Of a stretch of 64,000 bases of DNA, positions 44,618 through 61,428 are shown in pieces. Numbering within the stretch: position 1 is the stretch's first letter; every line of letters begins with the position of its first letter. The notes below the pieces were generated by a model, which saw only the letters and a list, made by a program, of their open reading frames with translations, made no database searches and was not told the DNA's origin. A program made the position numbers and the translations under genes. The stretch is from Deltaproteobacteria bacterium (lineage in GTDB: Bacteria > Myxococcota_A > Polyangia > Fen-1088). The stretch covers positions 64,001 through 128,000 of the forward strand of contig JANRKS010000021.1 of NCBI GenBank assembly GCA_033763315.1. The letters are read 5' to 3'.

Positions 44618-45376
44618 TTGTTGCCACTTTGGAACGCCGCGGCGACTGAATGCCCGGCCATCCTGCCGGCGGAAGCCTCGTACGTGACCACCGGGTCCCC
44701 CGAATTTCGCTATAGATGGCGGTTGTTGCCAGAGCCTCTTTCACTTTTCGCCCCACTGTGGCGGTCGTTCACCAGCGCCCCAACCACAGCCACCGAAACG
44801 CCGGGGATCCGCGCCGACTGGCACAAAGGCCGCCCCCGCTACGCCGTTTGGGTGGTGCGCGTCAGTCACCCCGCCGTAAACGAACGCGTGGCCGCCCTGG
44901 GACAGGCCTTGAAGCCCTGGCTCATCCCGCAGCCCGATCTGCACGTGACATTGGGCATCGCGGGCTTTCCGCGCCGCCAGTGCGTGGAAGACGACGACGT
45001 TTCGGAGAACGTGCTGGCCGCCCAGGCGGACGCCGTGGCTGCGTGGGCGCGTGCCACTTTATTTCGCGTGCACGGCGCGTGCGCCTTCTTGGCGGCGCCT
45101 TTTCTGTGTGTAACGGACGACCATCACAGCCTGCGCGACCTGCGGGCGCTGCTTGATCCGCCAGGCCGTGCGTTGAGCATCGAAGCTTACGTGCCACACG
45201 TGACTGTGGGGCGTTGGAATGGCGCTCACGCCACGGCCGCTGTGGCCCTGCGAATGGAGCCTTTTCGCAACGGCGACCCCATCGACGTGAAGGCCGATGC
45301 CGTGGAATTGGTGGACTACGACGCGGCCGATCCGCAGGCCCGGCTCGTCACGAAAGTGCGCGTTCCGATGCCTTAG
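44618..45376 (+). CDS. 2H phosphoesterase (2'-5' RNA ligase family)
   Basis: Two HxT motifs, LHVTL and PHVTV. Start uncertain. Confidence 0.75.
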   Translation: MLPLWNAAATECPAILPAEASYVTTGSPEFRYRWRLLPEPLSLFAPLWRSFTSAPTTATETPGIRADWHKGRPRYAVWVVRVSHPAVNERVAALGQALKPWLIPQPDLHVTLGIAGFPRRQCVEDDDVSENVLAAQADAVAAWARATLFRVHGACAFLAAPFLCVTDDHHSLRDLRALLDPPGRALSIEAYVPHVTVGRWNGAHATAAVALRMEPFRNGDPIDVKADAVELVDYDAADPQARLVTKVRVPMP

Positions 45377-47481
45377 CGGTGTGCGATCAGCACGAGCGCT
45401 TCAGGCCGCCCCAGCAGCGCTTGCAGCACGCGCAGGCTTGTTTCGGGATCAAGCGCCGCCAGCGATTCATCAAACACGCGCACGTCCACACGCTGCAACA
45501 GCGAGCGCGCCACGAACACGCGGCTCCGTTCACCGTGCGAAAGCTGCCACCCCGAATCACCAACGGTTTGATTTAAGCCCGCAGGCATGCGATCCAAAAG
45601 TGGGCCAAGGCCTAATTCACGACATACGGCATCGGCGGCGGCGATGTCTTCTTGCCGCGGTGGCCAGCGCCGGCCCAACAACAAGTTGAACAACAACGGC
45701 CCCGCGAAAATGTGGTTGTCATGAAATTGCGGCACGCCTCCAGATCGCTGGCGCCATCGCTGCGGCCCCACAGCGTGGTGATCAAAGCCGCCCAGCAGCA
45801 GCACACCCGAAGTGGGCACGCGCAAGCCCGAAAGAATTGCACCCAAAGTTGATTTTCCGCCTCCCGAGCCGCCTTCCAACAACACGCGTTCGTGACGACG
45901 AATCGAAAAATTGCACCCGCGCAACACGGCCTCGGGTCGGCCTTCGTAACGAAACACGACGTCGCGCCCCACCATCAAACCACGCCGCCCCACGGCGGCC
46001 TCGTCGGGAGACGCCGCCAACACGTCCGCCGAACTGGCGACGCCGCGCTGGGCGGCTGAAAACAAGAAGCGCAAGTTTCGCCACGCCACAAACGCCGCGG
46101 TCAACGCGGGGCTCGCTTCAGCCAGGTGGCGAAACGCACCCCAGATCAGCACCACGCCACCCAAAGCCGTTGCCAATGCCGCCGACGATGTGCCGCGATC
46201 AACGAACGCTGGAACGAGCCCCAATAAGCCCAGCACCACCCAGCCGCGCGGCAAAATCGCCGTGAGCTTTGTGGCCGCTTGATCCAATAGCCATGAGCGT
46301 TCTTGGTATTCGTCAAGCGAGGCATGCAGATGGCCGAGATGCAACCCTTGGTCTTGCGCCACCAAAGTGCGGTGGCCCACCATGGCTTCCACAAGCTCGT
46401 GTGTGACCGTCAGGCGAGCGTCGGTCCACGCCGTGAGCCGACGTTGCAGGCCGCGCAGCCACCACGCGAGCAACACAAGCCACAGCACCAACAACACAAA
46501 ATGGATCACGCCCCCCGCGCCCAGGGCAAGCAGCGAGGCACCCAACACCAGATCCAACACAACCCAAATCAAAGTGGGACCGCCGCCGCGCGCGAGAAGT
46601 TCAAGCGAATCAACTTCAAGCACAGTGCCAAGCAATTGTCCCACGCCGCGCGCGCGGATCTCGCCACCATCAAGGCGCAGGATGCCTTCCAACAAACGCT
46701 CGCGGGCCAAACCCGAAAGCAGCACCACGGCGCGCCCCAAAGCTGAGCCCGCCACCGCGCGCACTCCAACCATCGTGGCCAGCAGCAAACCAAACGCCCA
46801 TAAAGTGCCCGACTCCAAACGCCCTTGCAGCGCGCCGTTGGCCACCATGCCCCACGCGCCGCTGAACAACGCCAACTGCCCGATGAACCCCGCCAAGCCC
46901 GTTAGCAACAAACGTGCGGCGCCCAGGCGTCGAGCGCGTTGCCAAAACGTGGGCGCGGCGTCTTCGATCACCCACGCTTCGGCCAAAGCGCCGCCGCCTA
47001 AGGCCGCACGCATCGCACGCTCGGCGGCGAGGCGTTGCTTGCGCGGCAAGCCGAGTTCTGCAACCACCTGTGTGGCGTTTGCCGCGAACAACGCGTGCTC
47101 AAGCTGTGAGACATCGACGTAGACAGCGCCGTTGGGCGTAAGCACGCGCGCTGTGTGAGATGTGGCGGGCAAAGGCCCAACCACAACGAGGTATGCACCT
47201 TCTTCGGTCTCGGCGCTTAGGCAGCGCGCGATGATCGCGGATGCCTCTGGCAAAAGATCGGATAAGCCGCGCGCCCGCTGATCAGGTGCATCGACGGCGA
47301 GGCCCAAGCGGTGCACCCCCGCTTGCACCCAGCGATCAAGCGGAGGCCCAGCGATCACATCGGGCGCAGGGTTGGCCAGCGTGCGGAGTTCATCCACGCC
47401 GCGCAACTCTGTGTTGATCGCGGTCATCGCTTCGCCCAAGCGCGCGCGCGGCCAAGTCAATGATGCGGCCGCAACGCTCAT
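45373..47481 (-). CDS. ABC exporter (TMD+NBD) without a peptidase motif; partner of the C39 transporter
   Basis: Walker A GGSGGGKST, LSHGERSR, VFDES, IAHR; start overlaps the upstream stop. Confidence 0.88.
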   Translation of the reverse strand: MSVAAASLTWPRARLGEAMTAINTELRGVDELRTLANPAPDVIAGPPLDRWVQAGVHRLGLAVDAPDQRARGLSDLLPEASAIIARCLSAETEEGAYLVVVGPLPATSHTARVLTPNGAVYVDVSQLEHALFAANATQVVAELGLPRKQRLAAERAMRAALGGGALAEAWVIEDAAPTFWQRARRLGAARLLLTGLAGFIGQLALFSGAWGMVANGALQGRLESGTLWAFGLLLATMVGVRAVAGSALGRAVVLLSGLARERLLEGILRLDGGEIRARGVGQLLGTVLEVDSLELLARGGGPTLIWVVLDLVLGASLLALGAGGVIHFVLLVLWLVLLAWWLRGLQRRLTAWTDARLTVTHELVEAMVGHRTLVAQDQGLHLGHLHASLDEYQERSWLLDQAATKLTAILPRGWVVLGLLGLVPAFVDRGTSSAALATALGGVVLIWGAFRHLAEASPALTAAFVAWRNLRFLFSAAQRGVASSADVLAASPDEAAVGRRGLMVGRDVVFRYEGRPEAVLRGCNFSIRRHERVLLEGGSGGGKSTLGAILSGLRVPTSGVLLLGGFDHHAVGPQRWRQRSGGVPQFHDNHIFAGPLLFNLLLGRRWPPRQEDIAAADAVCRELGLGPLLDRMPAGLNQTVGDSGWQLSHGERSRVFVARSLLQRVDVRVFDESLAALDPETSLRVLQALLGRPEALVLIAHR

Positions 47482-50210
47482 CGCGCCCCCTCGGACGCGG
47501 TTGGCGGCGCGGTCTCTTGCACTTGCCCCGCCACCAATTGCCAGCGGCGCCAGTGAGGTTCGGCGAACGCCGATTGCAAGCGCTCTTCAACCGCCAAGAA
47601 TTTCGCAAATAGAGATTCAGGGTCTGCGGCCAACGCGCGCGGTGGGCCATCTTCGGCCACCCGGCCATTGGCAATCACCAACACGCGATCGAACACCATC
47701 GCGTCGGCCACGTCGTGCGTGGCGCATAAGAATGTGGCGCTGGCCCAGCGCTCCCTCGCGCGCGCCAAGAGCCGCTGCCGGCGGGGGCGTTCCAAGCCGC
47801 GGAACGCTTCATCCAACAACACAAGCCTTGCCTGTTCCTTGTGAATGTTGCGTGCAAAACGCACGCGTTGGCCTTCACCGCCTGACAGCAACCCGCCACT
47901 TTCGCCTAACGACGATTCAAGGCCTGTGGGCAAGCGCGCCAAGACTTCATCAAGCTCGGCGTCTTCGATAGAAGCACCCACCGGAGAGTCGGGGCGCGAA
48001 GAGCCATAGCGCAGGTTTTCAAGCAAGCTGCGGTTCCACAACTGCACCGATGGATCCACCCACACAGTGTGGCGCCGCAAAGCTTCAACGAGAGCCGGGC
48101 AAGAGGCCTCTCCATCTAAGTTCACCTGCCCGCGCGCGGGCTCGTGCCACCCCATCACCAAACCCAACAGACTGCTTTTGCCGCTGCCTGAAGCCCCCAC
48201 CATGGCCACGTGGCCACCCGCGGGCAAGTGAAGTGACTCGATCACGAGAACTTCATGGCCGCCCGCCTCCACGCGCACATCATCAAAGCGCAGGTCCACA
48301 CCCGTCGAAGCCTGTGAGGGCACCTCGGCGGGCCGTTCGGCATCGGCGGCGCCCAAAGGCTCGACGAGGCGCGCGGCAAGGTTCTTTTGCCGCGGAATTT
48401 GTTGCAACAAGAACGCAAACTCTTGCCCGAGCGCCGGCAGCGACAAACACCAATACACAAGCAGCAAGGCCCATCCAGAGCCCGGCGCGCGCGTCAGGTG
48501 ATCGAACAGCAGCGCCAAGGCAAAGCCATAGCCCACCAAGGTAACGGTGGCTTCCGAACGCACGGCGTATCGTGCCGCTTGCCACGCGGAACGGGCCCAT
48601 TCTTCGAGGCGCGTGGAATGCTCACGCATCAACGCCGTTTCGCCCGCGTGGGCACGCACGGCTTGCAAACCCAAAAGCGCATCCAGATAAAACACCGACA
48701 ACGCGCCCGCATGCGCCCGCACGCGCATGTCGCGCTCTTCGTGCCCCGATTGCATAAGCAAGGGAAAGCCCACAAGCGCCGCAAGCGAAAGCAAAGCCAA
48801 GGGCGTGCCACGCGGGTGCAACCAAATTACACCCGCGGTGGTCACCATCAATTCGCAGGTCACACGGAAGATCTGGCCTGCGTAAAACGGCAGCGATCGG
48901 ATCTGGTGGATCTGGTGCGCCCGCGTGGCCATGTCTGAAACAGGACGGCTTTGAAAATACGCGTCTTGCAAGCGCGGCAGCTTGTTTAAAAAGGCACGCC
49001 GCAAACCGCCTTCCAAGCGACGTCCAAGCGATGCCAGGCCCAAGGCGGTGGGCCACTCAAGCAACAGCAATGACGTGGCGAACAAGGCCACCATCGCCAC
49101 AGCGGCAACCCGGTGTGAAAACAGGGGCAAGCGTCGGCCGATGTCGAAGAAGGCACGGAACAACACCGCTTCCACCAGCGAACCCGCCGCCGCCAAACCA
49201 AGCCCTGCCCCGAGTAACCAAGGGGCGCGTTTCCCCGCCGTTGCCACCAGCCGCAGCAGCACCTTCGCCACAGGCTCTTCTGCGCCCGCCAAAGCGCGCG
49301 TGGTGGCCGTGGCCGGCGCGTTTGTTTGTGCAGAACCCGCGGGCTTAACACCATCCAATGCGATGGCCACAGCGCCGCGCATTTTCACCATCTTCACTGT
49401 TGTGTGCGTCGGGCCACCGGGCTCGCGATGTTCAGGCGGAACTTCCTCTTGCACATCCGCAGCGGGCTTGGCCAGCCGCAGGGCCTCGGGGATGGCGTTG
49501 GGGTTGTTGGCAGACGCGGCCACCAAACCATCGATCACGCGCGCGGCTTGTGCGGCGGAAAACCCGGCGTGGCCTTGCAGCCCTTCGGCCAAGCGCAAAG
49601 CACCTTCCAAGCGGCAAAACGCTTCCCAGCCTTGCGCCACAGCTTCATCAAAGCGTGCGGCTGCACGTGTGCACCCCGCGGCTTGCAGGCGCGCCACCAC
49701 CACACGCCGCAAGCCCGGATCGTGAACGAAATCTAAAAACGCTTCGAGCGGCACGGGCACATCCACCATGGCCACTTGCCGCATGAATTCACGGTGGTGC
49801 ACCCAATGCCGCCCGCGCGCCGGATCCATCACTTGCAGGTATGGGCCCACGCGCCGCCACACCACCACGAAGTGCAAGATGCCCGAAGGCATCGCCGTCA
49901 CCACGATCGCGGGCATGAGATCTGCGCGGTTCATCAATAGATGTTCCACGGGCATCACAGACTCGGCCGCGTCCAAACCCAACTCCTGCAGCACGGCCTC
50001 CAGCGCGGACACGGCGGTGCCATCCACGCTGGTGTGGCAGGCCTCGCGCAGACGCCCGTAGCTGACGGCGACGCCGTAACCTTCAAGCACGCTCTTTAAA
50101 CACGCAGGCCCGCAGTCCATCGCTGAGGTTTGAATCGCCTCAGGCACGAAGAACCGACGCCGCGCGCGCCGCCGGCTGGCCGCTTTGGAATCCGCGTCTT
50201 CTTGGCTCAT
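47478..50210 (-). CDS. peptidase C39-containing ABC transporter (PCAT)
   Basis: QTSAMDCGPACL, HFVVV, VMDPARG (Cys/His/Asp intact); GASGSGKS, LSGGEGQR, LLDEA. Confidence 0.93.
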   Translation of the reverse strand: MSQEDADSKAASRRRARRRFFVPEAIQTSAMDCGPACLKSVLEGYGVAVSYGRLREACHTSVDGTAVSALEAVLQELGLDAAESVMPVEHLLMNRADLMPAIVVTAMPSGILHFVVVWRRVGPYLQVMDPARGRHWVHHREFMRQVAMVDVPVPLEAFLDFVHDPGLRRVVVARLQAAGCTRAAARFDEAVAQGWEAFCRLEGALRLAEGLQGHAGFSAAQAARVIDGLVAASANNPNAIPEALRLAKPAADVQEEVPPEHREPGGPTHTTVKMVKMRGAVAIALDGVKPAGSAQTNAPATATTRALAGAEEPVAKVLLRLVATAGKRAPWLLGAGLGLAAAGSLVEAVLFRAFFDIGRRLPLFSHRVAAVAMVALFATSLLLLEWPTALGLASLGRRLEGGLRRAFLNKLPRLQDAYFQSRPVSDMATRAHQIHQIRSLPFYAGQIFRVTCELMVTTAGVIWLHPRGTPLALLSLAALVGFPLLMQSGHEERDMRVRAHAGALSVFYLDALLGLQAVRAHAGETALMREHSTRLEEWARSAWQAARYAVRSEATVTLVGYGFALALLFDHLTRAPGSGWALLLVYWCLSLPALGQEFAFLLQQIPRQKNLAARLVEPLGAADAERPAEVPSQASTGVDLRFDDVRVEAGGHEVLVIESLHLPAGGHVAMVGASGSGKSSLLGLVMGWHEPARGQVNLDGEASCPALVEALRRHTVWVDPSVQLWNRSLLENLRYGSSRPDSPVGASIEDAELDEVLARLPTGLESSLGESGGLLSGGEGQRVRFARNIHKEQARLVLLDEAFRGLERPRRQRLLARARERWASATFLCATHDVADAMVFDRVLVIANGRVAEDGPPRALAADPESLFAKFLAVEERLQSAFAEPHWRRWQLVAGQVQETAPPTASEGAR

Positions 50211-51397
50211 GGGGCCGCCTTGCCTTCGGCGTGGTTTGTGCCAGCCGCTTGCGCATCGATGCCTGTGACGAAGCGACCAGCGGCATCGAGCACCATCGTC
50301 AGCGGCGACGTTTGTTCCACCTTCACTTCCACAAGCCCCGGCAAACCGTGTTCAAGCGGCGCCGTGTTGCCAGCTGTGCGTGAGACGTCGAGCTCCACGC
50401 GTATCAAGCCGTCATTGGGCTCGGAGCCGACGTTCGTCACACGCACAGCGAGCGCGCCGTATTTTGTCCAAGGAAAGCCAAGCAAACGCACGCGCCCCGT
50501 TTGCCCGCGTTTGATGCGGCCCACCGCCGCTTGCGGATCGAAGAACGCCACCACGCGCAAGCCGCCTTGGGGCACCACCACCGCCAAGCGCGTGCCTTCC
50601 TCCACCACCGCCCCCGCGCGCAACGCACGCACGTCGCCCAAACGCCCGGATACGGGCGCGCGTATCGTGCGCAGCTCCACCTCACGCCCGAGCGTGCGCA
50701 GATGCGCCTGGCTTTCGGCCCGCATCGCTTCAAGTTGTGCGATCTCAAGTTCGATGCGCGCCAAACGCGCGCGGCGATCGCTGCGTTTCGCGATGACTTC
50801 GCCACCCAGCCGTTTGACGCCGGTGCGTGCGGCCTCGGCCTCGGCCACGCGTTGTTCTGCCTCGGACTTCATGCGTGAGGATTCAAGTTCCGCCACGATG
50901 CGCTGCTGCCGCAGCCGTTCCAGTTGCGACGTTTCGCTGGTTTTCAGTGTTGCCACAGCTTCACTGGCCCGGCGCATGGCTTCGGCCTCTTCGTGGGCCG
51001 CCACCGCCGCGACGCCCTCGCCCACCGCGGCCCGCTCATCGGCCGTCATCTCTTTGCGAAGGGCGTTGATCTGCGGTTCAAGCGCGGCCAGATGTGCCGC
51101 TTCCTTCGCCAACGCCAAGGAGAAGGCCTCGGCGTCCAATTGCACCAGCACGTCTCCCTGTTTCACCATGGCACCCAAAACCAAGTCGCTGCGCAACACG
51201 CGCCCCGACACAGGGGCATCCACGGGGTTAGAAGCGGTGTCCACTTCAAGCCGGGCGCTGTGCGAAGCGGCGTAAACAGACAGCTTCGCGAACAAGAACC
51301 ACGCGGTCCAAGCAAACAAAAGCAAGCCACCCGCCAGCGCCGACCAAGCGGGGGCGTTCTGGAAGGGGGCCAAAGCAGAGGCAAACTTTCGCGGCAT
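50207..51397 (-). CDS. HlyD-family membrane fusion protein
   Basis: One TM, APVSGRV...GDVLVQLD, long coiled coil, IRAPVSG, GFPWTKYG. Confidence 0.92.
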   Translation of the reverse strand: MPRKFASALAPFQNAPAWSALAGGLLLFAWTAWFLFAKLSVYAASHSARLEVDTASNPVDAPVSGRVLRSDLVLGAMVKQGDVLVQLDAEAFSLALAKEAAHLAALEPQINALRKEMTADERAAVGEGVAAVAAHEEAEAMRRASEAVATLKTSETSQLERLRQQRIVAELESSRMKSEAEQRVAEAEAARTGVKRLGGEVIAKRSDRRARLARIELEIAQLEAMRAESQAHLRTLGREVELRTIRAPVSGRLGDVRALRAGAVVEEGTRLAVVVPQGGLRVVAFFDPQAAVGRIKRGQTGRVRLLGFPWTKYGALAVRVTNVGSEPNDGLIRVELDVSRTAGNTAPLEHGLPGLVEVKVEQTSPLTMVLDAAGRFVTGIDAQAAGTNHAEGKAAP

Positions 51398-51531
51398 GAG
51401 CGGGCGCTAGAGTACCGCAGAACCTCACCGAAGCAGGTCCAAAGACCGGGTGTGTGACGCAAGCCGCTCTGCGCTCGGGGAACCTGCAATCCGCTTGACG
51501 GAACGTTCTCTTTCGAGAACACTTGCTTCCG

Positions 51532-53094
51532 ATGAAGGCTATCGTTTTGGTGATTTTGGCGCTGGCTTGCGCAGCCCGTGAGGCGAACGCCAAAACGCCC
51601 CTCCATCGCACGCGCCCGTTGAGCTATGCGTCGCTTGGCTTTTGGTGGGGCACAGGCTGCCCTGACAACGGCCGCTGCGCGTGCAGCCCCACCGCCACGA
51701 CGATGCAGGAGGAGGCCAGCTGCCAACTTGACGCCCTGGCCAAGCACGACTTTCCCGTCGATGTGTTTTTGTTTGACGGCAATGCGTGGTCAAAAGCCAA
51801 CTCGTTCAAAGACAACCAATGCCGTGGCGAAGACTGCTGCGAATGGAAGTTAGGCGATGGCTTGATCGACCGGATGAAAGCCCAGGGCGTTCGAGCCGTG
51901 CTGCACTTTTGGGGTGGATGCCACCAGGACGAACAATATGAACGCGCCCATCGGCGCTTGGGCAAAGTGCTGCTGGGATTTTATCTCGACGACGGATCGT
52001 CGGACGCCGAAGCATCCCGCGCCAGTGCGTTCTTGGCCCGCGTGGCGCCTGGCGATTCAGACGTTGTGTGCAAAGCCATTCAAGGCCGGGACGACAAAAC
52101 CAGCGAAGCGTTTCTTTCGTCCACCGCGAACGTAAGCTACGTCGGCGACACCCACTATGACTGGCAGGGCCTCAAAGACGGCATCAAGCGGTTCTTCACA
52201 AAGGGGCCACTGCTTCCGGCCGCGTTCAACGAACTGACGGGGTACTGGTATCCGAAGGAAGGCACGCCCGACGAAGAGACGGTGTATCGACGTTTACACT
52301 GGGGCGCCGTGCAACCAATCATGGCGCACACGCCGTTCGCAAACATGGATCCTTGGCAACACGGCTATTCCGCGGAGCTGCTCGCCGCCTATCGCCGATG
52401 GGCCTGGTGGCACAAAGAGCTCACGCCCTACATCTACAGCCTGTCGATCGCGATGCACGAGAACCCCGCCGAACCGGTCATTCGCAATGCTTCTTTGCCA
52501 AACGAATCAATGCAACTGGGGCCCAACATTTTTGCGGCATTCGTCAGCGATCCGAAGGTGAGCGCACGTGACGTGCAGTTGCCGCCGGGACGATGGATCG
52601 ACGTTTGGAATGAAGACAACGTGCTATCGGGCCGCGTGAAGCAGCACCCAGCCAAGCCGGGATTCGAACCTGTGTTCGTTAAAGAAGGCGCGTTGCTGCC
52701 GCTACAGGTGGCGCGCCCTTATGCAGATCACGGCACGCGCGCTTCGGCAGACAGCTTAACGTTGCTGGCATACCCAGCCGGAAAATCTACTTTTAGGTAC
52801 CGGGATCACGTTCGCAACCAATGGCACGTGTTCACGTTGAAGCAGCAAGGCCCGGCGCTGTCGTTGGACGCCGCACCACGGTTTCGACGCCTGCCGGTGT
52901 TGCTGCGGCTGGGTCGACAAAAGCAGCCACCGCAATCCGTTGGCATCAAAGGAGGCCGGCTGTTGGTGAATGCCACCGATCGTATCGCCGCCTTGCCACA
53001 AGTCGCAACAGAAGACGCCGTCAACGCCGCGGGCGCTTCGTGCTGGTTCTTCGACGCGCAGAAAAGGCGATTGATCGTTAAGTGGGTCCCCTAG
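51532..53094 (+). CDS. secreted glycoside hydrolase family 31-like protein
   Basis: Signal peptide, FPVDVFLFD, YRRLHWGA, LTPYIYS, VQLPPGRWID.W, PVFVKEGALLP. Confidence 0.7.
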   Translation: MKAIVLVILALACAAREANAKTPLHRTRPLSYASLGFWWGTGCPDNGRCACSPTATTMQEEASCQLDALAKHDFPVDVFLFDGNAWSKANSFKDNQCRGEDCCEWKLGDGLIDRMKAQGVRAVLHFWGGCHQDEQYERAHRRLGKVLLGFYLDDGSSDAEASRASAFLARVAPGDSDVVCKAIQGRDDKTSEAFLSSTANVSYVGDTHYDWQGLKDGIKRFFTKGPLLPAAFNELTGYWYPKEGTPDEETVYRRLHWGAVQPIMAHTPFANMDPWQHGYSAELLAAYRRWAWWHKELTPYIYSLSIAMHENPAEPVIRNASLPNESMQLGPNIFAAFVSDPKVSARDVQLPPGRWIDVWNEDNVLSGRVKQHPAKPGFEPVFVKEGALLPLQVARPYADHGTRASADSLTLLAYPAGKSTFRYRDHVRNQWHVFTLKQQGPALSLDAAPRFRRLPVLLRLGRQKQPPQSVGIKGGRLLVNATDRIAALPQVATEDAVNAAGASCWFFDAQKRRLIVKWVP

Positions 53095-53107
53095 CCTTTA
53101 GGAGTTT

Positions 53108-53860: not shown

Positions 53861-53940
53861 CCGCGGCGGCCGCGCCGGGGAACCCCGTCAGGATTTGGAG
53901 GTTGCATCTGCCATGCCGGCGCGCCACTGTAGCAGCCCTC

Positions 53941-54999
53941 ATGGTTCACCTTCCCACCGATAAAGCCGCCGCCTTGGCTGAAAAGGCTCACTTGGCATTC
54001 GTTGCCGAGCAGTTCGAGCAAGCCGAAGCTCTGTTCACAGAGTCATCAACGTTGCTGCGTTCGCATGTTGTCAAATCCAAAGCGCCTGACGAAGACGCGG
54101 CCCGCACATGGGTGGCCGCCCATTGCGGCGCCGCTTCGGCCGCGCGGGCCCAAGGCGGGTACGCCCGCGCCGAAAAGCGTTTGAACGAAGCTGAAGCCTT
54201 CGTGCTGCGCACCTACGGGGCCAAGGACGCCGTTTACGCCAACGTGCTGAATGAGCGCGGCATCTTGCGCAAGTACCAAGGCCGCTTCAAAGAAGCGGAG
54301 GCCGAATACAAGAAGTGCAAGCCACTCATAGCCAAAGGCTTCGGCAAAGACAGCGAGTCTATGTCGGTGCTGTTGCACAACTTGGGCGGCATTGCGCACG
54401 CGCAAGGGCACTGGAAGCGCGCCGAAGCGTATGCGCGCGAAGGGCTGCGCTTGCGCCAAAGCTTGCCGAAGCCAGATGCTGTGGCCGTGGCCGCCGATCA
54501 AAGCGCCCTCGCCGCCATCTTGGATGTGGCTGGCAACCACGACGAAGCGGCCACGCTGTTGGCAGAGGCTTTGGCGACGTTCAAGAAGAAGCTGGGCCCA
54601 CGCAGCTTCGAGGTGGGTGTTACGATGGAGACGCTGGGCAACCTGCACTACCGCATTCACGATTTGCCCAAAGCCGACAAGCTGCTAACCGCGGCGCTTG
54701 AGATTCAACAAGAGCGCTTGGGCGCCGGCCACCCAGAACTCGCGTTCGCGTTGCATAACCTCGCCGTGGTGCGCATTGATCGTGGGCAACCCGAAGACGC
54801 CCGCCCGTTACTACAAGAAGCGTTGGCCACGTTTAAGAAAACCTTTGGCCCGAAGCACGCGAACACGCTTGTGGTCAAAGATCGGCTCGAATCACTGGGC
54901 AAGGCGGCCGCGCCCCTCAAAAAAGCGGCGCCGATCCCCACAAAGAAGCCGCAACGCAAAACCACAAAGACGGCTGCGAAGTCCAAAAAAGCTCGCTAA
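53941..54999 (+). CDS. tetratricopeptide repeat protein with Lys-rich tail
   Basis: About 42-aa kinesin-light-chain-type TPRs (LHNLG/LHNLA, G..HP). Confidence 0.85.
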   Translation: MVHLPTDKAAALAEKAHLAFVAEQFEQAEALFTESSTLLRSHVVKSKAPDEDAARTWVAAHCGAASAARAQGGYARAEKRLNEAEAFVLRTYGAKDAVYANVLNERGILRKYQGRFKEAEAEYKKCKPLIAKGFGKDSESMSVLLHNLGGIAHAQGHWKRAEAYAREGLRLRQSLPKPDAVAVAADQSALAAILDVAGNHDEAATLLAEALATFKKKLGPRSFEVGVTMETLGNLHYRIHDLPKADKLLTAALEIQQERLGAGHPELAFALHNLAVVRIDRGQPEDARPLLQEALATFKKTFGPKHANTLVVKDRLESLGKAAAPLKKAAPIPTKKPQRKTTKTAAKSKKAR

Positions 55000-56468
55000 G
55001 CGCGAAACTTTTCCACGTCAATGCCGTGGCGGTCCACCGCGCGCTTGATCACCTTCCAATGGCGATCAAGTTCGCGGGCCACTTCGCTCACATTGCCTTG
55101 GTGCTTGCGCAGAAGCGCTTCTAACTCTTCCTTTGTTGGAATGCGCCGTGGTGAGCGACGACGCGACGGCCCGCCTTCATCGTCATCTTCCTCTTCGGGG
55201 GCACTCGCCACCAACACGGGTGCGGATGGGCGGTTGCCGGTGCTTGTGCCTGTGGGGCCAAACCCATCAACGACGGTGCCGTTTTCGCCAACGAGGCCCG
55301 CGATCTCTTCGGGCACGTGCGCCAACCCCAACTCAGCCGCGCCTTCACCCAAGAGCGCCGCCGTTTCGATCACCTTCTTGAGCTCGCGCACATTGCGCAG
55401 CCAAGGGTGAAGGCACAACGCCAAAAACAGCACAGGATCCAGCGGCTTCGAAGGCCCGCGCCCGCCATTCGTGAGGAAGAAGTGAATCAACACACCCAGA
55501 TCCTCACGACGCGCGCGCAACGGCGGCAACGTGAAGGCGGCGGCACCCATGCGTCCCACGAGATCTTCGCGCAAACCGGGCGACCCGTTGCCACCACCGG
55601 GGCGGCTGGTGGCGGCCAACACGCGCGTTTCCACGTGACGCGAACGCGTGGCCCCCAACGGCACGATCTCGCGGCTTTGCAGAAACCGCAGCAACTTGGC
55701 CTGCGCGGTTTGTGGCATGTCGCCGATCTCATCCAGAAACAATGTGCCGCCCTCAGCCTCTTCAATCAGTCCACGCTTTGATTGCATGGCTTGCGAGTGA
55801 GCGCCGCGCACATAGCCAAACAGTTCGCTTTCAACCAAGTCGCCGGGCAACGCCGCGCAGTTCACGGCCACAAGCGGGCCACCGCGGCCGCTGGCCTTGT
55901 GAATCGCCTCCGCATAAACCTCTTTGCCAACCCCGGTTTCCCCCACCAGCAAGATCTCATGCTCGGAGCGCGCCATCTTGCGCAGCTTCACTTCGCCGGC
56001 GGCGGTGGCGGGCGACGCGGTGACGATGGGGCCCAAAGGGTTGCGTGCAGAGTCGCTAAGGCATGCTTGATCGTCGGCGGACAGCCACCGGAAGACTGCC
56101 GCGTGGCCGCCGAAGAACAACAGATCACCATCGGCCAGGGGCACCGGGCCGCGCACCAAAGCGCCGTTGCGAAGCGTGCCGTTCGTGCTGCCTAGGTCTT
56201 CCAGCACGCACAAGCTGCCTTGGCGCTGGATGAAGGCGTGTTTGCCCGAGGCACGCCGGTGGGTGAGGCGCCAGGCGGGCAACGAATCTGTGGATTCGGC
56301 GTTGCGACCGATCTGCAAACCGCCCGGGCCGATCAACAGGACGCGCGCGGCGCCCGCAGGTGCGGCGCCCCCCAAAGCGGCATCTCCCACGACGATGAGG
56401 GACGGCGTGCGCGTCGACGACGCCACCGGAGATTGAATTTCCGTGCTGGGACCTGGCATGACGCTCAT
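54996..56468 (-). CDS. FHA-domain sigma54-type enhancer-binding protein (FHA-AAA+-HTH)
   Basis: FHA IGR..SGKHA..DLGSTNGT; GETGVGKE, VNCAAL, ESELFG, LFLDEIGD, W.RNVREL; C-terminal GNVSEVAREL. GAFTGA position reads GAHSQA. Start placed at ATG 56468. Confidence 0.92.
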   Translation of the reverse strand: MSVMPGPSTEIQSPVASSTRTPSLIVVGDAALGGAAPAGAARVLLIGPGGLQIGRNAESTDSLPAWRLTHRRASGKHAFIQRQGSLCVLEDLGSTNGTLRNGALVRGPVPLADGDLLFFGGHAAVFRWLSADDQACLSDSARNPLGPIVTASPATAAGEVKLRKMARSEHEILLVGETGVGKEVYAEAIHKASGRGGPLVAVNCAALPGDLVESELFGYVRGAHSQAMQSKRGLIEEAEGGTLFLDEIGDMPQTAQAKLLRFLQSREIVPLGATRSRHVETRVLAATSRPGGGNGSPGLREDLVGRMGAAAFTLPPLRARREDLGVLIHFFLTNGGRGPSKPLDPVLFLALCLHPWLRNVRELKKVIETAALLGEGAAELGLAHVPEEIAGLVGENGTVVDGFGPTGTSTGNRPSAPVLVASAPEEEDDDEGGPSRRRSPRRIPTKEELEALLRKHQGNVSEVARELDRHWKVIKRAVDRHGIDVEKFRA

Positions 56469-56518
56469 GTGGTGCCCATCGACCATACAACGGCCCGCGC
56501 GCGGCTCGAAGGCCCGGC

Positions 56519-56577
56519 GTGGGACTGCGGTTGGGACTCGTTGGGACTCGTTGGGACTCGCGTGGGTGCAGTCCCAA
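56519..56577. repeat. 10-bp tandem direct repeats (TTGGGACTCG x3, one imperfect copy, one inverted GTCCCAA); candidate activator binding sites
   Basis: gtgggactgcgg-ttgggactcg-ttgggactcg-ttgggactcg-cgtgggtgca-gtcccaa, about 85-140 bp upstream of the -24 element. Confidence 0.75.
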
Positions 56578-56660
56578 GGAGATGGCGCGGAATCATGCGT
56601 TTTCGGCCGAAAGAGCGGGGATTTTGGCGGGGCACGCGTTTTTTCAGAAGGGCTGGAACG

Positions 56661-56677
56661 TTGGCACGAAGGTTGAA
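56661..56677 (+). promoter_or_regulatory. sigma54-like -24/-12 promoter for the repeat peptide gene
   Basis: TTGGCACGAAGGTTGAA against consensus TGGCACG-N4-TTGC(A/T); GA instead of GC at -12. Confidence 0.7.
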
Positions 56678-56752
56678 GTAGTCCCTCTCGTCCGAACGGC
56701 AGCAAGCCGCAAGACACCCACCAACCCCAACTTCCAACGAAAGAGATTCCCC

Positions 56753-57157
56753 ATGAAAACCTCCAAGATGATCGTTCGCACCTCCACTGGCATCAAAGCT
56801 GGCGGCCTCGTCTCCACCAACCACAACCGCGCTCTCATCAAAGCCGCTTCGGGCGCCAAGGCGGGCGGTCTCGTCTCCACCAACCACAACCGCGCTCTCG
56901 TCAAAGCTGCTTCGGGCGCCAAGGCGGGCGGTCTCACCAGCATGAACCACAACCGCGCTCTCGTTAAGGCTGCTTCGGGCGCCAAGGCGGGCGGTCTCAC
57001 CAGCATGAACCACAACCGCGCTCTCGTTAAGGCTGCTTCGGGCGCCAAGGCGGGCGGTCTCACCAGCATGAATCACAACCGCGCTCTCGTTAAGGCTGCT
57101 TCGGGCGCCAAGGCGGGCGGTCTCACCAGCATGAACCACAACCGCGGATTGATCTAA
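56753..57157 (+). CDS. 134-aa multi-cassette peptide precursor with six KAGG-Lxxx-NHNR units
   Basis: ATG 56753 after GAAAGAGA; MKTSKMIVRTSTGIKAGG, then LVSTNHNR x2 and LTSMNHNR x4 joined by AL(I/V)KAASGAKAGG; several differences between units are synonymous in this frame. Confidence 0.85.
   Translation: MKTSKMIVRTSTGIKAGGLVSTNHNRALIKAASGAKAGGLVSTNHNRALVKAASGAKAGGLTSMNHNRALVKAASGAKAGGLTSMNHNRALVKAASGAKAGGLTSMNHNRALVKAASGAKAGGLTSMNHNRGLI
56795..57145 (+). repeat. 63-bp coding tandem repeat, about 5.6 copies
   Basis: Unit aaggcgggcggtctcaccagcatgaaccacaaccgcgctctcgttaaggctgcttcgggcgcc. Confidence 0.95.
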
Positions 57158-57162
57158 CTCGC

Positions 57163-60100
57163 TCATGATTCGCCACGGATCCAATCGGTTCCCGTTTTGA
57201 GATGAACGTGCGGGGACCGTGGTTCGGGAATGGCGGGAAACTTCAAGCCGAGCGAGTGTGCCTGTCGCGCCAGCAGACCAACATCTGGCAGTGACGCCAA
57301 CACACGCTCTCGATCGTCCTGGCTTTGCAAAACGCTCAAACGCTTCTCCAAAGCCACCAACGCTTCCGCAGCCACTTCGCGCGCCTGTGCCATATCTCCC
57401 TCAGCGCGAAGGCATTCAACCCCTGCAAGCCACACGAGAAACTCTGCGTGTTCAGCGCCACCCAAACGACGAAGCGTGGCCACAGCAGATTCGGCATAGA
57501 TGCGCGCGTCCTTACCACGGCCCACCATCAGTAAGGCGCGCGCCAATGCAGCCTCGGCGGTGAACAGCAACGACGGTGTTTTGGCCAGATGGGACACGGC
57601 CTCCTCAGCCCGCGCCAGCGCCAGGTCGCCGCGCTCCTCCGCCAAAGCGGCTTGTGCCAACAAGATCGAGCAGAAGCCAACAACCCGTGGGTCGTTCTGC
57701 CCGTCGCCGCCCGCGAGAGCTTCTTCGACCATCTGGCGCGCCTCCGCGTTTTGTCGCCGGCACAGCAAGGTCGCTGCCAGATTCACCTGGCCCATAAGAA
57801 GCGTGTAGTGGCCGCCTAATCGACGCGACAATGCGATGAGGTCGCGTGCGGCCTTCTCAGCTTCTTGCAGTTGCCCGACGTCGGTCAGCGTGCACACAAG
57901 GTTGTTAAGCACCCCGCACGACTCGCGCAAATCTCCCACGATGTGGAACAGCTCAAGCGCGCGCCTTGCATCGTCGATGGATTGTTGCGCTTTTCCGAGA
58001 ATGAGATGCAAATGCGTGCGCAGCGAATACCACATCGCGCGCAGACGAAGATCCCCACCAAGGGCCACTTCACGCACGTTCTCGAGAACGGAAATCACAA
58101 CCAGCGGCTCGTTCAGGAACAAGAAGAATCCTGAGGCCTGAAGCACGGCATACGTCCACTGATGGGACGCGCCATCATCGCTCTGGCAATCGAGCAGCTG
58201 CTGGTGCGACTGCCTCATCAGGTCGAACTTCTGCTGATGACCAAGCGAGATCGTCAACTCGCGCAAAGCCTCCAGATGCAGATCGCCCCGCAACCACTCC
58301 AGAGCCTTACGCGCCGCCTCCTCACCTGCGGGCCAATCGCCCCGGTACATGTGCGCGCGGCATGCCACCAGATGCAAGCGCCCCAGCTCCTCGTCTTGCG
58401 GCCCTAAGGCGTGCGCGCGGGCGCAGCGGTCAAACACACCCTCAAAATCGCTGGCATCCAACGCTTGTTCGGCGGCCACGCGCCACTGAACCAAGGCCGC
58501 CTGCGTTTCGCCCGCGCGCTCGAAATGCGACGCCAACACAACACCATCACGTTCACCGCAGTCTTGCAGGTAAAACGCCGCAAGCTTGTGGCCCACGCGG
58601 CGATCAACGTCCGTCAGCGTGTCGTAGGCCGCGTCTTTCACAAGGGCGTGGCGAAACTGCCAGCGCTCGTCGTAAGGGTTGACCTCGCCCGTGCTTGTGC
58701 GCACGTCGGGCGACATGATGAGCTCGGCGTTCGACAACACGTCCAGCCACTCCACCACGTCCGCGCGCAGTTCCGCGGGCAACAAGGCCGCCACACCGCC
58801 CGCGACAAAGCCTTCGCCAAACACAGAAGCCGCACGCAGCACACGTTTGCCGGCGTCACCCACTTGATCCAATCGCCCCTGCACAGCGGCCAAAACCGTG
58901 GGTGGCGTGGCGTGCCCCGCTCCACCGCCGTGAACCGCTTCCACGCGCACCAGTTCTTCGAGAAAGAACGGATTGCCATCGGCACGTTCGATCAAGGCCT
59001 GCGCGCGTTCGTCTGAAAGCTCAGGCAAAACCGCTTTGATCAACTCACGCGCCGCGCGTGCACGCAAAGGCGAAAGCGTGATGCGATCGGCGGTGTCGCG
59101 CCACAGGTTGGGAAAGCGCGCGTTCACCTCGGGCCGCGCAAACGCCATCACAACGAGGGGCATGGTGCGATATGCCTTCATCGCGGCGTCCACCAGAGCG
59201 ATCGAAGGTGCGTCGCCCCAGTGCAAATCCTCAAGCACCAGCAACACACGCGAATTCATCAGCGCGGCGGCCAACCAATCAAGCCAGGCCACGCGCACCT
59301 GATCTGCCATCGTGCGCGGATCTTGCCGCGCCGCCAACACCAGTGGGATAAGATGAGACGGTGTTTCAAGGCCCGCAATTTCGCCGAGAAACGCCCACAC
59401 ACGCGCGCGATCAGGGCCGGCCAACGTGGGCGCCGAAAGCGCCAAAAAGTCCTCAAGCTTCGCACTTTGCTGCCCGGGCGAATCCGTTGCCACCACCTGT
59501 GCCGCTTGTTTAAACGCCGCGCCCAAGATCTCGTATGGCGCCCCCGCCCTGAATGCATCGGCCACTCCCACCAACGGCAGCAGCACGTCGTCTTCCTCTT
59601 GCAACCGCCGCAACAACTCACGCCGCAATCGTGATTTGCCAGCGCCCGCGGGCGCCAAGATCAAAGCGGCACCGCAGCGGGGCTCATCGAAGCATTCAGT
59701 CACCAAGGCTTCAAGCGAGCGCAGTTCGCGTTCACGCCCCACGAAAGGAACCTGCCGGCCCATCACCAAACGTGATGAAGCGTTGGCACCGATCTCACCC
59801 ACCAGTTGGTATGCCGCGCCGGCTTCCGTTTGTTGCAGCAGCACGGAGAATTGCTCGCTCAGCAGTTCGGCTGTGTCTGCATCCACATAAACGGCCACCG
59901 CCTCGCCCATCGCTGACGATGCGGCCGCGGGCGACAACGCCACCAAGCGCGTGGTCTCGTCGATCGCTGCACCCACCAAAACGCGCCCCTCCACTGTGGC
60001 CCGCCCCAGCGCCAAGGCCATCGCTCGCCCTGCCAAGACCGAACGCAACTCCAACGCCGCGCGCGCCGCACGCACCGCAAGTTCACGCGCGCCGCCCACG

Positions 60101-61221
60101 CCGAACGTCACCAAAGAAGACCCTGACAGCAACACCTGCGCCTCGCCGCCCCACCGGGCCACCACCTCTTGCAAACGTTTGGCTTCATCGGGCCGGGTGT
60201 CAGCCTGTGGCCCGGGGCCCACCATCAACACCATCACAGGGCGCGCTTCACGCGCACCCAACGACTTGGATGCAACCGGCTGCGCAGGCAACGTCCCCAC
60301 AGATTCAGCCACGGCGCGCAGTTGCGCTGCCAACGCCAGAGCGTCGGCCGGCCGATCCTCTGGCGCGCGCGACAACATGCGCGACACCACAGGCGGTAGG
60401 CCCGAGGGCAATACGTCCAACACGTCGGCGGGCACCACCGAATCAGCCAAAGCCAGTTTCGCCAAGCCCGCTGAACCTGCCCCCGCAAACACGGGGCGAC
60501 CGGTGATGCACTCAACGAGCACACACCCCACGGCGAACACATCGGCGCGACCGTCGAGCTCCTTCTGCCCCAACGCTTGTTCGGGCGCCATATAAAGCGG
60601 CGTGCCCATCACCTGCCCCGTCAACGTGCGCATCCACCCGTGAACTTCACGTGCCACGCCGAAATCCAACAACTTTGCCTGCGCAAGATCGCCACCCGGC
60701 AGGAACACGTTCGAGGGCTTAAAGTCGCGGTGAACCACGCCTCGTGCGTGCGCGGAGCCGAGCGCATCCAACATGCGCGCCATCACCAGGCATGCGTGCG
60801 CAGGCTCAAGTGGCCCGTGGTTCAAACGTTCGCGCAGGTTTTCACCCGCCAGCAGTTCCATCACCAAGTACGGCGCGCCCGCTGCTGTAAGCCCATGGTC
60901 CAGATACTTCACGATGGCGGCGTGCCGCAGCGATGCCAGCACACGCGCTTCACGTTCAAACATCTGCGACGTATGAACGTCCACTTGGGCCGCCGTCTTC
61001 ACCGCGACCAAAGCGCCCGACACACGATCGCGCGCACGGAACACCACGCCGCCCCCGCCAGAGCCGATCACAGCGAGGATCTGGTAGCGATCACCCAAGA
61101 CATCACCCCGCGTCGATGCAGCATCGACGTCGCGGCGAAGCTCGGCGACCGGCCCGACCTGCGTGGTGTCGTCCGGCTCGGAAGCGGTGGGAGGTGGGGG
61201 AGGGTGCCCCATGTGTGGCAT
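57163..61221 (-). CDS. Ser/Thr protein kinase - degenerate cyclase-like domain - STAND/AAA ATPase - TPR protein
   Basis: GSGGGGVV, VAVK, HRDFKPSN, DFG, GTPLYMAPEQ; FVGRERE, Walker A APAGAGKS, Walker B LEDLHW, GNPFFLEE, FRHALV; helical repeats. ORF is open to 61257. Confidence 0.92.
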   Translation of the reverse strand: MPHMGHPPPPPTASEPDDTTQVGPVAELRRDVDAASTRGDVLGDRYQILAVIGSGGGGVVFRARDRVSGALVAVKTAAQVDVHTSQMFEREARVLASLRHAAIVKYLDHGLTAAGAPYLVMELLAGENLRERLNHGPLEPAHACLVMARMLDALGSAHARGVVHRDFKPSNVFLPGGDLAQAKLLDFGVAREVHGWMRTLTGQVMGTPLYMAPEQALGQKELDGRADVFAVGCVLVECITGRPVFAGAGSAGLAKLALADSVVPADVLDVLPSGLPPVVSRMLSRAPEDRPADALALAAQLRAVAESVGTLPAQPVASKSLGAREARPVMVLMVGPGPQADTRPDEAKRLQEVVARWGGEAQVLLSGSSLVTFGVGGARELAVRAARAALELRSVLAGRAMALALGRATVEGRVLVGAAIDETTRLVALSPAAASSAMGEAVAVYVDADTAELLSEQFSVLLQQTEAGAAYQLVGEIGANASSRLVMGRQVPFVGRERELRSLEALVTECFDEPRCGAALILAPAGAGKSRLRRELLRRLQEEDDVLLPLVGVADAFRAGAPYEILGAAFKQAAQVVATDSPGQQSAKLEDFLALSAPTLAGPDRARVWAFLGEIAGLETPSHLIPLVLAARQDPRTMADQVRVAWLDWLAAALMNSRVLLVLEDLHWGDAPSIALVDAAMKAYRTMPLVVMAFARPEVNARFPNLWRDTADRITLSPLRARAARELIKAVLPELSDERAQALIERADGNPFFLEELVRVEAVHGGGAGHATPPTVLAAVQGRLDQVGDAGKRVLRAASVFGEGFVAGGVAALLPAELRADVVEWLDVLSNAELIMSPDVRTSTGEVNPYDERWQFRHALVKDAAYDTLTDVDRRVGHKLAAFYLQDCGERDGVVLASHFERAGETQAALVQWRVAAEQALDASDFEGVFDRCARAHALGPQDEELGRLHLVACRAHMYRGDWPAGEEAARKALEWLRGDLHLEALRELTISLGHQQKFDLMRQSHQQLLDCQSDDGASHQWTYAVLQASGFFLFLNEPLVVISVLENVREVALGGDLRLRAMWYSLRTHLHLILGKAQQSIDDARRALELFHIVGDLRESCGVLNNLVCTLTDVGQLQEAEKAARDLIALSRRLGGHYTLLMGQVNLAATLLCRRQNAEARQMVEEALAGGDGQNDPRVVGFCSILLAQAALAEERGDLALARAEEAVSHLAKTPSLLFTAEAALARALLMVGRGKDARIYAESAVATLRRLGGAEHAEFLVWLAGVECLRAEGDMAQAREVAAEALVALEKRLSVLQSQDDRERVLASLPDVGLLARQAHSLGLKFPAIPEPRSPHVHLKTGTDWIRGES

Positions 61222-61428
61222 CGGGTTACCACAAGCAAGGCCAGAACGCCTGTTCATTCTTGCTCCAAAGCGTCACCGTCCTTACGACGGCTATCAGCGC
61301 GCATCGCCCAGAGCACACCGCGTCATGAGCGAAGCCAGGTCCAAATTTGCCCGAAGTCCCCATAACCGTTCGGTTTCTACGCGGATGCGCGCCAAACCTC
61401 ACGCGAGTCGTGGCACACTGGCGACATC

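Follow-up and report, generated by a model that had tools for sequence, protein, structure and literature searches.

Peptide pheromones exported by peptidase-containing ATP-binding cassette (ABC) transporters (PCATs) are textbook Gram-positive biology and include ComC, with ComAB and ComDE, and the inducing peptides of three-component systems; to our knowledge, nothing comparable has been described for myxobacteria or acidobacteria. Here we describe a locus at positions 45373-61257 of a 64,000-nucleotide stretch of DNA (the window) from contig JANRKS010000021.1 of a Polyangia genome (assembly GCA_033763315.1; G000). It encodes a small precursor built of six repeated cassettes, each with an Asn-His-Asn (NHN) motif, together with an HlyD/PCAT/ABC exporter, a Hanks-type Ser/Thr kinase, an FHA/AAA+ activator, and a TPR protein. 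We read these genes as a kinase-controlled repeat-peptide export and signalling system, with a probability of about 0.5. The precursor family and the regulatory wiring appear to be new; the export principle is known.

Like the ComC/ComAB/ComDE circuits, the locus combines a Gly-Gly precursor with a C39-ABC exporter and an accessory protein, and a sensor kinase and a transcription factor are encoded beside the peptide gene, which is their likely regulatory target. Where those circuits have a histidine kinase as sensor, this system has a Hanks Ser/Thr kinase that carries TPR repeats; its output runs through an FHA/AAA+ activator acting at a sigma54-type promoter, or through an ECF sigma factor; the precursor is multi-cassette, with a basic, beta-strand-like leader that has no hydrophobic residues at -4, -7, and -12; and the hosts are diderm Myxococcota and Acidobacteriota instead of Gram-positive bacteria. 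The best NCBIfam architecture matches to the exporter belong to the NHLP/Nif11 export trio (TIGR03794 HlyD, TIGR03796 C39-ABC, and TIGR03797 ABC), which has the same three-gene architecture and an x-A-G-G cut site, but here there is no NHLP/Nif11 leader domain and no modifying enzyme, and the PCAT has an extra ~200 aa.

In RRNPP quorum sensing (Rap, NprR, PlcR, PrgX), a cytoplasmic TPR receptor is encoded beside the gene of a small secreted peptide, a likeness that fits the non-membrane kinase-STAND-TPR protein of the window. RRNPP peptides, however, are exported by Sec or PptAB and re-imported by Opp, and their receptors are phosphatases or HTH regulators, whereas the putative receptor here is a kinase-STAND fusion and no import system was seen. 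Tandem short cores, each flanked by a conserved processing signal and varying in copy number between close relatives, are also found in yeast alpha-factor and cyanobactin PatE-type precursors; the protease and export route differ, and the present locus has no macrocyclase or tailoring enzyme.

FHA-domain enhancer-binding proteins are known in Myxococcus xanthus, and PMC7826278 documents ECF groups that are associated with Ser/Thr kinases; both resemble the present system in that a Hanks kinase is paired with an ECF sigma factor or FHA activator in the gene neighbourhood. In the searchable part of this literature neither kinase/ECF nor kinase/FHA systems are linked to a peptide precursor family or a PCAT exporter, a negative limited by the supplementary neighbourhood tables of PMC7826278, which could mention such neighbours. 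The activators described here carry GAHS[QT]A in place of GAFTGA. A literature search whose scope excluded most subscription journals and supplements turned up no description of the cassette motif or of the gene set, and, with subscription journals likewise outside its scope, no paper naming the GAHSxA variant; passages of PMC6213207 and PMC3482391 gave nothing that bears on the system.

The precursor gene and its family

The system comprises the following features.

45373-47481, minus strand: ABC permease/ATPase without a peptidase domain, second exporter subunit (Pfam ABC_tran at residues 520-674)
47478-50210, minus strand: PCAT of 910 aa with C39, transmembrane, and nucleotide-binding domains (Pfam Peptidase_C39, 68.9 bits; ABC_membrane; ABC_tran)
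50207-51397, minus strand: membrane fusion protein of the HlyD type, encoded by the first gene in the exporter operon (Pfam HlyD_3, 58.3 bits)
53941-54999, plus strand: cytoplasmic TPR protein of ~352 aa, in a reading frame open from 53782 (Pfam TPR_12, 172.7 bits)
54996-56486, minus strand: FHA + AAA+ activator, probably 496 aa (Pfam FHA, 45.5 bits; Sigma54_activat, 164.6 bits)
56520-56577, no strand: direct repeats of TGGGACTCGT, 3.9 copies, then inverted GTCCCAA (Tandem Repeats Finder)
56662-56677, plus strand: sigma54-type -24/-12 promoter TGGCACGAAGGTTGAA (TGGCACG-N4-TTGA), 76 nt before the ATG of the precursor gene (pattern match)
56753-57157, plus strand: six-cassette precursor of 134 aa (translation of the open reading frame, Tandem Repeats Finder, profile search)
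57163-61257, minus strand: Hanks-type Ser/Thr kinase with STAND (AAA_16) NTPase and TPR, 1364 aa (Pfam)

A first-pass annotation, made from the sequence alone, had proposed a six-cassette Gly-Gly precursor located between a divergent FHA/sigma54-type activator gene and a convergent Ser/Thr kinase-STAND-TPR gene, 5.4 kb from an HlyD/C39-ABC/ABC operon. All six cassettes are present in the translated open reading frame (ORF), Pfam confirms both neighbours, and the Pfam domains of the operon fall where they had been placed. The kinase gene extends beyond its proposed end at 61221, which is the second in-frame Met codon; the ORF reaches 61257.

The translated precursor has a 14-aa head followed by six units of K-A-G-G, four residues, N-H-N-R, and a spacer of ~10 aa; K-A-G-G thus occurs six times, with Gly-Gly at the putative cut site, where leaders cut by C39 have Gly-Gly or Gly-Ala/Ser. 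The underlying DNA repeat spans 56819-57146 (period 63 nt, 5.2 copies, 95% matches, score 565; Tandem Repeats Finder). This repeat is far beyond chance, because the same cassette occurs in two further genes of the genome and in 1651 cluster representatives. One of the two is a second six-cassette gene, 68% identical and with an 18-aa unit, and the other is a one-cassette gene of 24 aa, so that the genome search gives three peptide modules and one PCAT. One-cassette products resemble the last cassette at their C-terminal ends (N-H-N-R-G/T-L-L/I/V), which suggests a mature 10- or 11-mer from which the K-A-A-S-G-A-K-A-G-G spacer is also removed; the second cut that this would take is purely conjectural. 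A 239-aa ORF at 56465-57184 on the minus strand lies antisense to the peptide gene, and the genome search gave a weak reverse-strand self-match; both were rejected as evidence of a gene and read as by-products of the G+C-rich repeat. In a search of sequencing runs, no run contained half of the words and the best DNA run reached 0.21, so no habitat is claimed.

The ORF belongs to a large family, as yet without a name, whose members are small basic precursors with 1 to 14 cassettes. A profile search of 1.84 billion representatives gave 1651 cluster representatives at E<=0.001 (234 at E<=1e-10), and a word-indexed search added seven metagenome relatives. No Pfam or NCBIfam model matches the precursor, ten family members scanned at E up to 1 gave only noise, and in their source records the members are named "hypothetical protein" or left without a name. 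Among 41 genomes, the window's included, 14 have a peptide match, and all but one of these fall within the window's own taxonomic family. A DNA pattern for two cassettes, scanned over one genome per species, returned 76 stretches; as it requires an AAG Lys codon as well as two cassettes, it undercounts the family. Real family members are carried by 72 stretches, while four (L070, L071, L107, and L114) are chance matches. Judged by record title, the 72 loci come from Acidobacteriota (36), Myxococcota-type records including Polyangia, Sorangium, Labilithrix, Nannocystales, and others (26), "uncultured proteobacterium" metagenome-assembled genomes (MAGs; 8), Singulisphaera (1), and an Acidimicrobiia MAG (1). 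One Acidobacteriia MAG has ten pattern-positive loci on nine contigs (L050, L056, L057, L064, L068, L091, L100, L108, L112, and L118), most with a kinase of their own; peptide/kinase modules have expanded very greatly within this one genome.

Cassettes follow the consensus G-L-K-V-K-S/T-x-V-K-A-G-G, with three or four variable residues before N-H-N-(Q/R/E), and K-A-G-G and N-H are invariant in an alignment of 17 sequences (A1). Statistics were drawn from 515 cassettes in 214 peptides, selected by a pattern that demanded A-G-G and N-H-N/S and thereby predetermined these letters. With a cut after Gly-Gly as the reference point, position -4 is Lys (91%), -5 Val/Ile (88%), -6 variable, -7 Ser/Thr (92%), -8 Lys/Arg (87%), -9 Val/Ile (85%), -11 Leu/Met/Val/Ile (97%), and -12 Gly (60%). 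The gap to N-H-N holds three variable residues in 253 cassettes and four in 241. The modal period is 20-21 aa and the copy number ranges from 1 to 14, with 56 of the 214 peptides coming from one-cassette genes (24-25 aa) and 73 from two-cassette genes; the number differs even among close relatives, at six in the window and four in the same-genus genome G001. The composition is basic (K 10.2%, R 6.9%, D+E 2.8%) and poor in Cys (0.5%). FHA domains require phospho-Thr, and the -7 residue was considered as a phospho-site read by FHA and rejected, as Ser (55%) predominates over Thr (37%).

Exporter, activator, promoter, and kinases

The three exporter genes lie on the minus strand with overlapping stops and starts, including those of the HlyD and PCAT genes. 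The HlyD protein has one N-terminal hydrophobic segment. The PCAT is the only gene combining C39 and ABC domains found in the genome, and a search with its N-terminal 180 aa aligned the Gln, Cys, His, and Asp of its C39 domain with those of PCAT1 (4ry2); a PDB search with the whole protein gave matches to the ABC parts only. The ~200 aa between its C39 and membrane domains (residues ~145-369; 49104-49778, minus strand) match no Pfam family, and the second ABC subunit likewise has no Pfam match in its first 250 aa. That subunit has five hydrophobic segments in a hydrophobicity scan and no C39 domain, its best NCBIfam match is TIGR03797 (NHLM_micro_ABC2), and its orthologues adjoin NHN peptides in 11 of 72 loci. 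Taken with the linkage described below, the precursor is probably a substrate of this PCAT.

The TPR gene most likely starts at 53941. Its product has no hydrophobic segment and is encoded once in the genome. A predicted complex of the TPR protein with the precursor scored 0.36, against 0.02 for the best control, which we grade as weak support: of 80 solved complexes 58 came up to the score mark, as did 2 of 110 mismatched pairs, and scores of 0.60 or less are those of 7 of the 80 solved complexes and of both passing mismatches. At least 50% of contacts are shared between runs, with a predicted local distance difference test (pLDDT) value of at least 29 for the partner. On this model the TPR protein may escort the precursor toward the exporter.

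The activator most likely starts at 56486 (MVDGHH..., 496 aa; its paralogue has 495 aa) and not at 56717, which leaves an intergenic region of 266 bp before the precursor gene. Its AAA+ domain matches the sigma54-interaction family PF00158 well above the cut-off of 20.2 bits, with Walker A GETGVGKE. Standard motif lists for FHA domains (G-R, S-x-x-H, and N-G) and for Hanks kinases (the Lys of VAIK, HRD, DFG, and APE) are matched at the sequence level: the FHA residues (PF00498) are intact, and the kinase has VAVK, HRDFKPSN, DFG, and APE. All six family activators seen beside NHN peptides or the exporter carry GAHS[QT]A, and GAFTGA is found in L026, L048, and L066. In the window's genome, 6 of 38 L1-type loops are GAHSxA, and three of these adjoin NHN peptides. 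Outside the window, the GAHS[QTA]A clade of this genome includes C1:142920, C2:432717, C5:68087, C32:338425, and C35:82965, and no NHN peptide was found near those on C1, C2, and C5.

The TGGGACTCGT repeat is conserved in the same-genus orthologue, and the paralogue has a different G-rich repeat at the same place; it is a candidate binding site for the activator. The TGGCACGAAGGTTGAA promoter, the only exact match to its pattern in the window, is conserved in both the orthologue and the paralogue. Sigma54-type sites (TGGCACG-N4-CTGCA) precede 21 of 81 distinct peptide genes, compared to 24 of 2000 random stretches, and, with one exception, lie 10-76 nt before the ATG; 20 of the 21 genes are in Myxococcota-type records. 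The window's genome contains rpoN (on contig C6), and no second site of this type was found ahead of the exporter operon. Based on the promoter and the intact kinase and FHA motifs, the kinase/activator pair is likely to control transcription of the precursor gene. One-cassette genes of the genus (L004, L016, and L024) share the upstream sequence TTTTTTGACTTGCC and have no sigma54-type site, and may be expressed differently from the six-cassette genes.

When the regions before acidobacterial peptide genes were searched by k-mers and dyads for a promoter of the ECF type, the outcome was a Shine-Dalgarno signal (17 of 31) and one motif defined post hoc. This two-box motif (TGATCG or TGGTAC, ~15 nt, TGCGCC or TGCACC) is found in 6 of 31 upstream regions and 21 of 3000 random stretches, a circular count because the motif was derived from the same sequences. 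It lies 46-71 nt before the peptide ATG in loci L054, L057, L064, L065, and L115, and could be an ECF promoter.

The window's kinase matches Pkinase (143.8 bits), AAA_16 (53.7 bits), and TPR families, and its paralogues flank both other peptide genes of the genome. Ten peptide-adjacent kinases from other loci are of a different build. Nine combine Pkinase with TPR (750-1009 aa) and one combines Pkinase with PD40/WD40, and in a hydrophobicity scan each has a single hydrophobic segment after the kinase domain, which would place the repeat domain outside the cytoplasm. The window's kinase and its paralogue on contig C35 have a STAND module in place of this segment; the receptor-type helix between kinase and TPR is absent from these two and present in the kinases examined elsewhere. 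Two peptide-adjacent receptor kinases (L032:10240-12939 and L035:10223-13018) additionally have an N-terminal zf-HC2 anti-sigma-type finger, a sequence feature that hints at direct binding of an ECF sigma factor.

Linkage across genomes, proposed mechanism, and alternatives

When proteins of the window were used as tblastn probes on the 72 named 8-kb peptide loci, a kinase domain was found in 38, an ECF sigma factor (PF07638), which replaces the activator in acidobacterial loci, in 22, the PCAT, ABC, or HlyD protein in 18 from two phyla, the TPR protein in 18, and the FHA activator in 5; 16 loci have none of these neighbours. Because the peptide is not centred in the 8-kb loci, each count is a minimum. 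By comparison, the window's genome (7.6 Mb) encodes ~125 kinase domains, a single PCAT, and a single TPR protein of this kind. Probe-free clustering of 593 ORFs of at least 110 aa from 84 loci, with four chance loci and seven duplicates dropped beforehand, recovered the receptor-type kinase in 39 loci, the ECF sigma factor in 14, the TPR protein in 10, the PCAT in 8, the second ABC subunit in 7, HlyD in 5, and the FHA activator and the STAND kinase in 5 each. No tailoring or immunity gene recurs among these ORFs. Proteins of ~850 aa with DUF5916 and CBM9 domains were also found in six of the 84 loci, for example L038:15716-18838, L051:4608-7181, and L088:3532-6057.

The arrangement within individual loci is also informative. 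Locus L080 reads peptide-HlyD-PCAT-ABC-peptide on one strand, and on a contig of genome G012 (C151, L031) two peptide genes abut the ABC and PCAT genes, followed by the TPR and FHA activator genes. The trio of kinase, peptide, and FHA activator occurs three times in the window's genome and also in Sorangium sp. So ce1000 (L062), where the kinase is a kinase-STAND protein and a TPR gene is present as well. In 40 relatives, 11 have both peptide and PCAT, 2 the peptide only (one doubtful), 4 the PCAT only, and 23 neither; the PCAT is therefore present in 11 of 13 peptide-positive and 4 of 27 peptide-negative genomes, which is a pattern and not a test because the relatives are not independent. Nine PCAT loci of relatives (12-20 kb each) include the TPR protein in five, a kinase in five, and the FHA activator in three, and in G001 the kinase, activator, TPR protein, and exporter lie together on one contig. 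The TPR protein is a conserved companion of the exporter and the peptides. The overall picture is of one exporter per genome serving several dispersed peptide/kinase modules.

From the observed gene content, motifs, neighbourhood, and co-occurrence, we infer each biochemical step of the following model. The TPR-bearing Hanks kinase would switch on the neighbouring FHA/AAA+ activator through phospho-threonine, and the activator would open the precursor gene's promoter, which is of the sigma54 type. The only PCAT of the genome would use its C39 domain to cut the precursor after the Gly-Gly of each cassette, and the PCAT/ABC heterodimer with its HlyD adaptor would export the pieces as 21-mers, or as 11-mers (x4-NHNR-x-L-I/V) should the spacer be removed too; en route, the precursor would probably be handled by the conserved cytoplasmic TPR protein. 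The exported peptide would most likely act as an unmodified signal read by TPR-domain kinases. In most relatives the reader would be a membrane receptor kinase with its TPR domain outside, while the cytoplasmic STAND kinases of the window's genome would need the peptide to be re-imported or would read unexported precursor. A fuller version is speculative, and taken as a whole we consider it doubtful: soil Myxococcota and Acidobacteriota would use peptide-ligand/receptor-Ser/Thr-kinase signalling of eukaryote-like logic, in which tandem-copy pheromone precursors are cut and exported by the PCAT, each variable core of three or four residues is read by its own TPR-domain Hanks kinase, a GAHSxA FHA activator or ECF sigma factor closes an autoinduction loop, and each genome has several private channels.

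Several observations weigh against the export and signalling model. The activator's sigma54-contacting L1 loop (region 55830-55850) is GAHSQA and not GAFTGA, and PspF is reported to be inactive when the Phe of GAFTGA is changed to anything but Tyr. The -12 element of the TGGCACGAAGGTTGAA promoter is TTGA, not TTGC. A hydrophobicity scan found no convincing membrane helix in the window's kinase or its C35 paralogue; the window's kinase therefore cannot read a periplasmic peptide directly and would depend on re-import, and no peptide importer is apparent in this system. Short contigs in the RNA libraries of three studies are 87-95% identical to the first 140 nt of the precursor gene, and one resembles a later cassette, but these derive from relatives and the libraries may contain DNA, which limits them as a hint of transcription; parts of the stretch that these runs leave uncovered carry no meaning. 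The exporter proteins score well below the curated cut-offs of the NHLP export families (168.7 vs 853.3, 92.7 vs 709.4, and 44.3 vs 156.2 bits, the middle pair being that of the second ABC subunit) and so are not members of the equivalogs TIGR03794, TIGR03796, and TIGR03797. The head before the first Gly-Gly is just 11-18 aa. Canonical leaders (ComA and LahT data in PMC6363468) have hydrophobic residues at -4, -7, and -12 for recognition by C39, with a helix that docks into the C39 groove; in the present family the hydrophobic residues are instead at -5, -9, and -11, and the C39 domain would have to read a basic, alternating-hydrophobic leader in a different way. Linkage is also incomplete. 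None of the nine PCAT loci of relatives contains a peptide gene by pattern, G001 has the peptide gene and promoter on contig C5 and the exporter on C12, and G009 (96% complete) has the peptide with no PCAT match at E<=1e-60. The first-pass link between the NHN peptides and the exporter is borne out by co-occurrence and by adjacency in two phyla, while the 5.4-kb proximity is not kept within the genus; the export and signalling model built on it gains from comparative genomics and loses from the noncanonical leader, the GAHSQA loop, the cytoplasmic kinase, and the frequent unlinking.

If the peptides are exported, we lean slightly toward a signal over a toxin. Unmodified cationic toxins resembling class II bacteriocins or microcins, exported by the PCAT and induced by kinases that sense competitors or stress, seem unlikely overall. 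The export machinery is that of bacteriocins, the peptides are strongly basic, the three or four residues after Gly-Gly vary, and many diverse copies can occur per genome, as in the Acidobacteriia MAG with ten loci. However, no candidate immunity gene recurs in the 84 loci, the predicted products of 11-21 aa lack Cys pairs as well as any hydrophobic or amphipathic stretch, and the tightest partner of the peptide gene is a sensor kinase instead of an exporter or immunity gene, the pattern of a pheromone/receptor pair. A role inside the cell, as a beta-solenoid-like scaffold or as a multivalent kinase substrate or regulator acting on the STAND kinase, the TPR protein, or the FHA activator, we regard as improbable. 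It would fit the cytoplasmic location of the window's kinase and TPR protein, the weakly supported complex, and the conserved Ser/Thr at -7, although FHA needs phospho-Thr and Ser is the commoner residue there. The precursor matches only unnamed clusters in a protein atlas, where its model (pLDDT 0.66) resembles beta-solenoids (SufBD, ice-nucleation protein), and AlphaFold2 draws one strand per cassette; the AlphaFold2 model is of such low confidence (pLDDT 50, predicted template-modelling score 0.37) that it is uninformative on structure, and so gives the export model no help either. One- and two-cassette genes cannot form a solenoid alone, and an intracellular protein would leave unexplained the adjacency to a catalytically intact PCAT and to kinases with outside TPR domains.

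Modification of the peptide before export, by an enzyme encoded elsewhere that acts on the invariant Asn-His-Asn, would make it a true RiPP (a ribosomally made peptide that is modified post-translationally), which appears very improbable. The N-H-N is nearly invariant in an otherwise variable core, as modification sites often are, and multi-core precursors are typical of some RiPP classes. No enzyme family, however, recurs near the peptides in the 84 loci, and the peptide genes are scattered over several loci per genome, each beside regulators only. The first-pass statement that lanthipeptide, YcaO, radical-SAM, and ATP-grasp families are lacking holds for the window ORFs scanned (24517-63998, ORFs before 24517 being outside the scan), among which no RiPP tailoring enzyme was found. 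We give least credence of all to the view that exporter and peptide module are unrelated neighbours and that the PCAT serves another substrate. In its favour are the split between contigs in G001, the PCAT loci of relatives that lack the peptide gene, and the GH31 and short-chain dehydrogenase/reductase (SDR) genes lying between the two modules. Three intervening genes had originally been taken to leave the link unproven, and GH31 and SDR are indeed not among the recurring clusters, but the third, the TPR gene, is a conserved part of the system. Chance proximity is further contradicted by the recurrence of the adjacency in 18 loci, by the correlated presence of peptide and PCAT across genomes, by the lack of any other PCAT in a genome with three peptide loci, and by the TPR protein and FHA activator genes that adjoin the exporter in relatives.

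Neighbouring genes and biological meaning

Two genes within the locus are not among the recurring neighbours, and those flanking it are unrelated to the system.

51523-53094, plus strand: C-terminal parts of GH31, a fragment-like gene (Pfam)
53108-53860, plus strand: SDR (Pfam)

On one side the system is flanked by genes for a 2'-5' RNA ligase superfamily protein, TauE, and Amt, and on the other by those for GH77 and a 2-hydroxyacid dehydrogenase. Also unrelated to the peptide system is a gene at 32444-39166 (plus strand) for a 2240-aa single-module polyketide synthase (KS-AT-ACP-KR-DH) fused to a class I/II aminotransferase, adjoined by NeuB-like, fatty-acid hydroxylase, and epimerase genes.

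Few soil groups are as abundant or as socially complex as myxobacteria and acidobacteria, whose very large sets of kinases are mostly without known ligands. The peptide family, with its constant processing motif and short variable core in at least 1651 sequence clusters, supplies concrete candidate ligands, and, as each candidate sits beside its own TPR-kinase, they could be paired with orphan Hanks kinases. A testable output is offered by the peptide gene's own sigma54 or ECF promoter, and Sorangium sp. So ce1000 is a cultured carrier. The system also raises the questions of how a C39 domain reads a basic, strand-like leader, whether GAHSxA activators can still drive sigma54, and whether the TPR protein is a new type of precursor escort. 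Were the peptides toxins, they would represent a new class of unmodified bacteriocins from poorly mined phyla. If the private-channel signalling reading is correct, this would be the first peptide quorum-sensing family in Myxococcota and Acidobacteriota, and the first with Hanks kinases as receptors.

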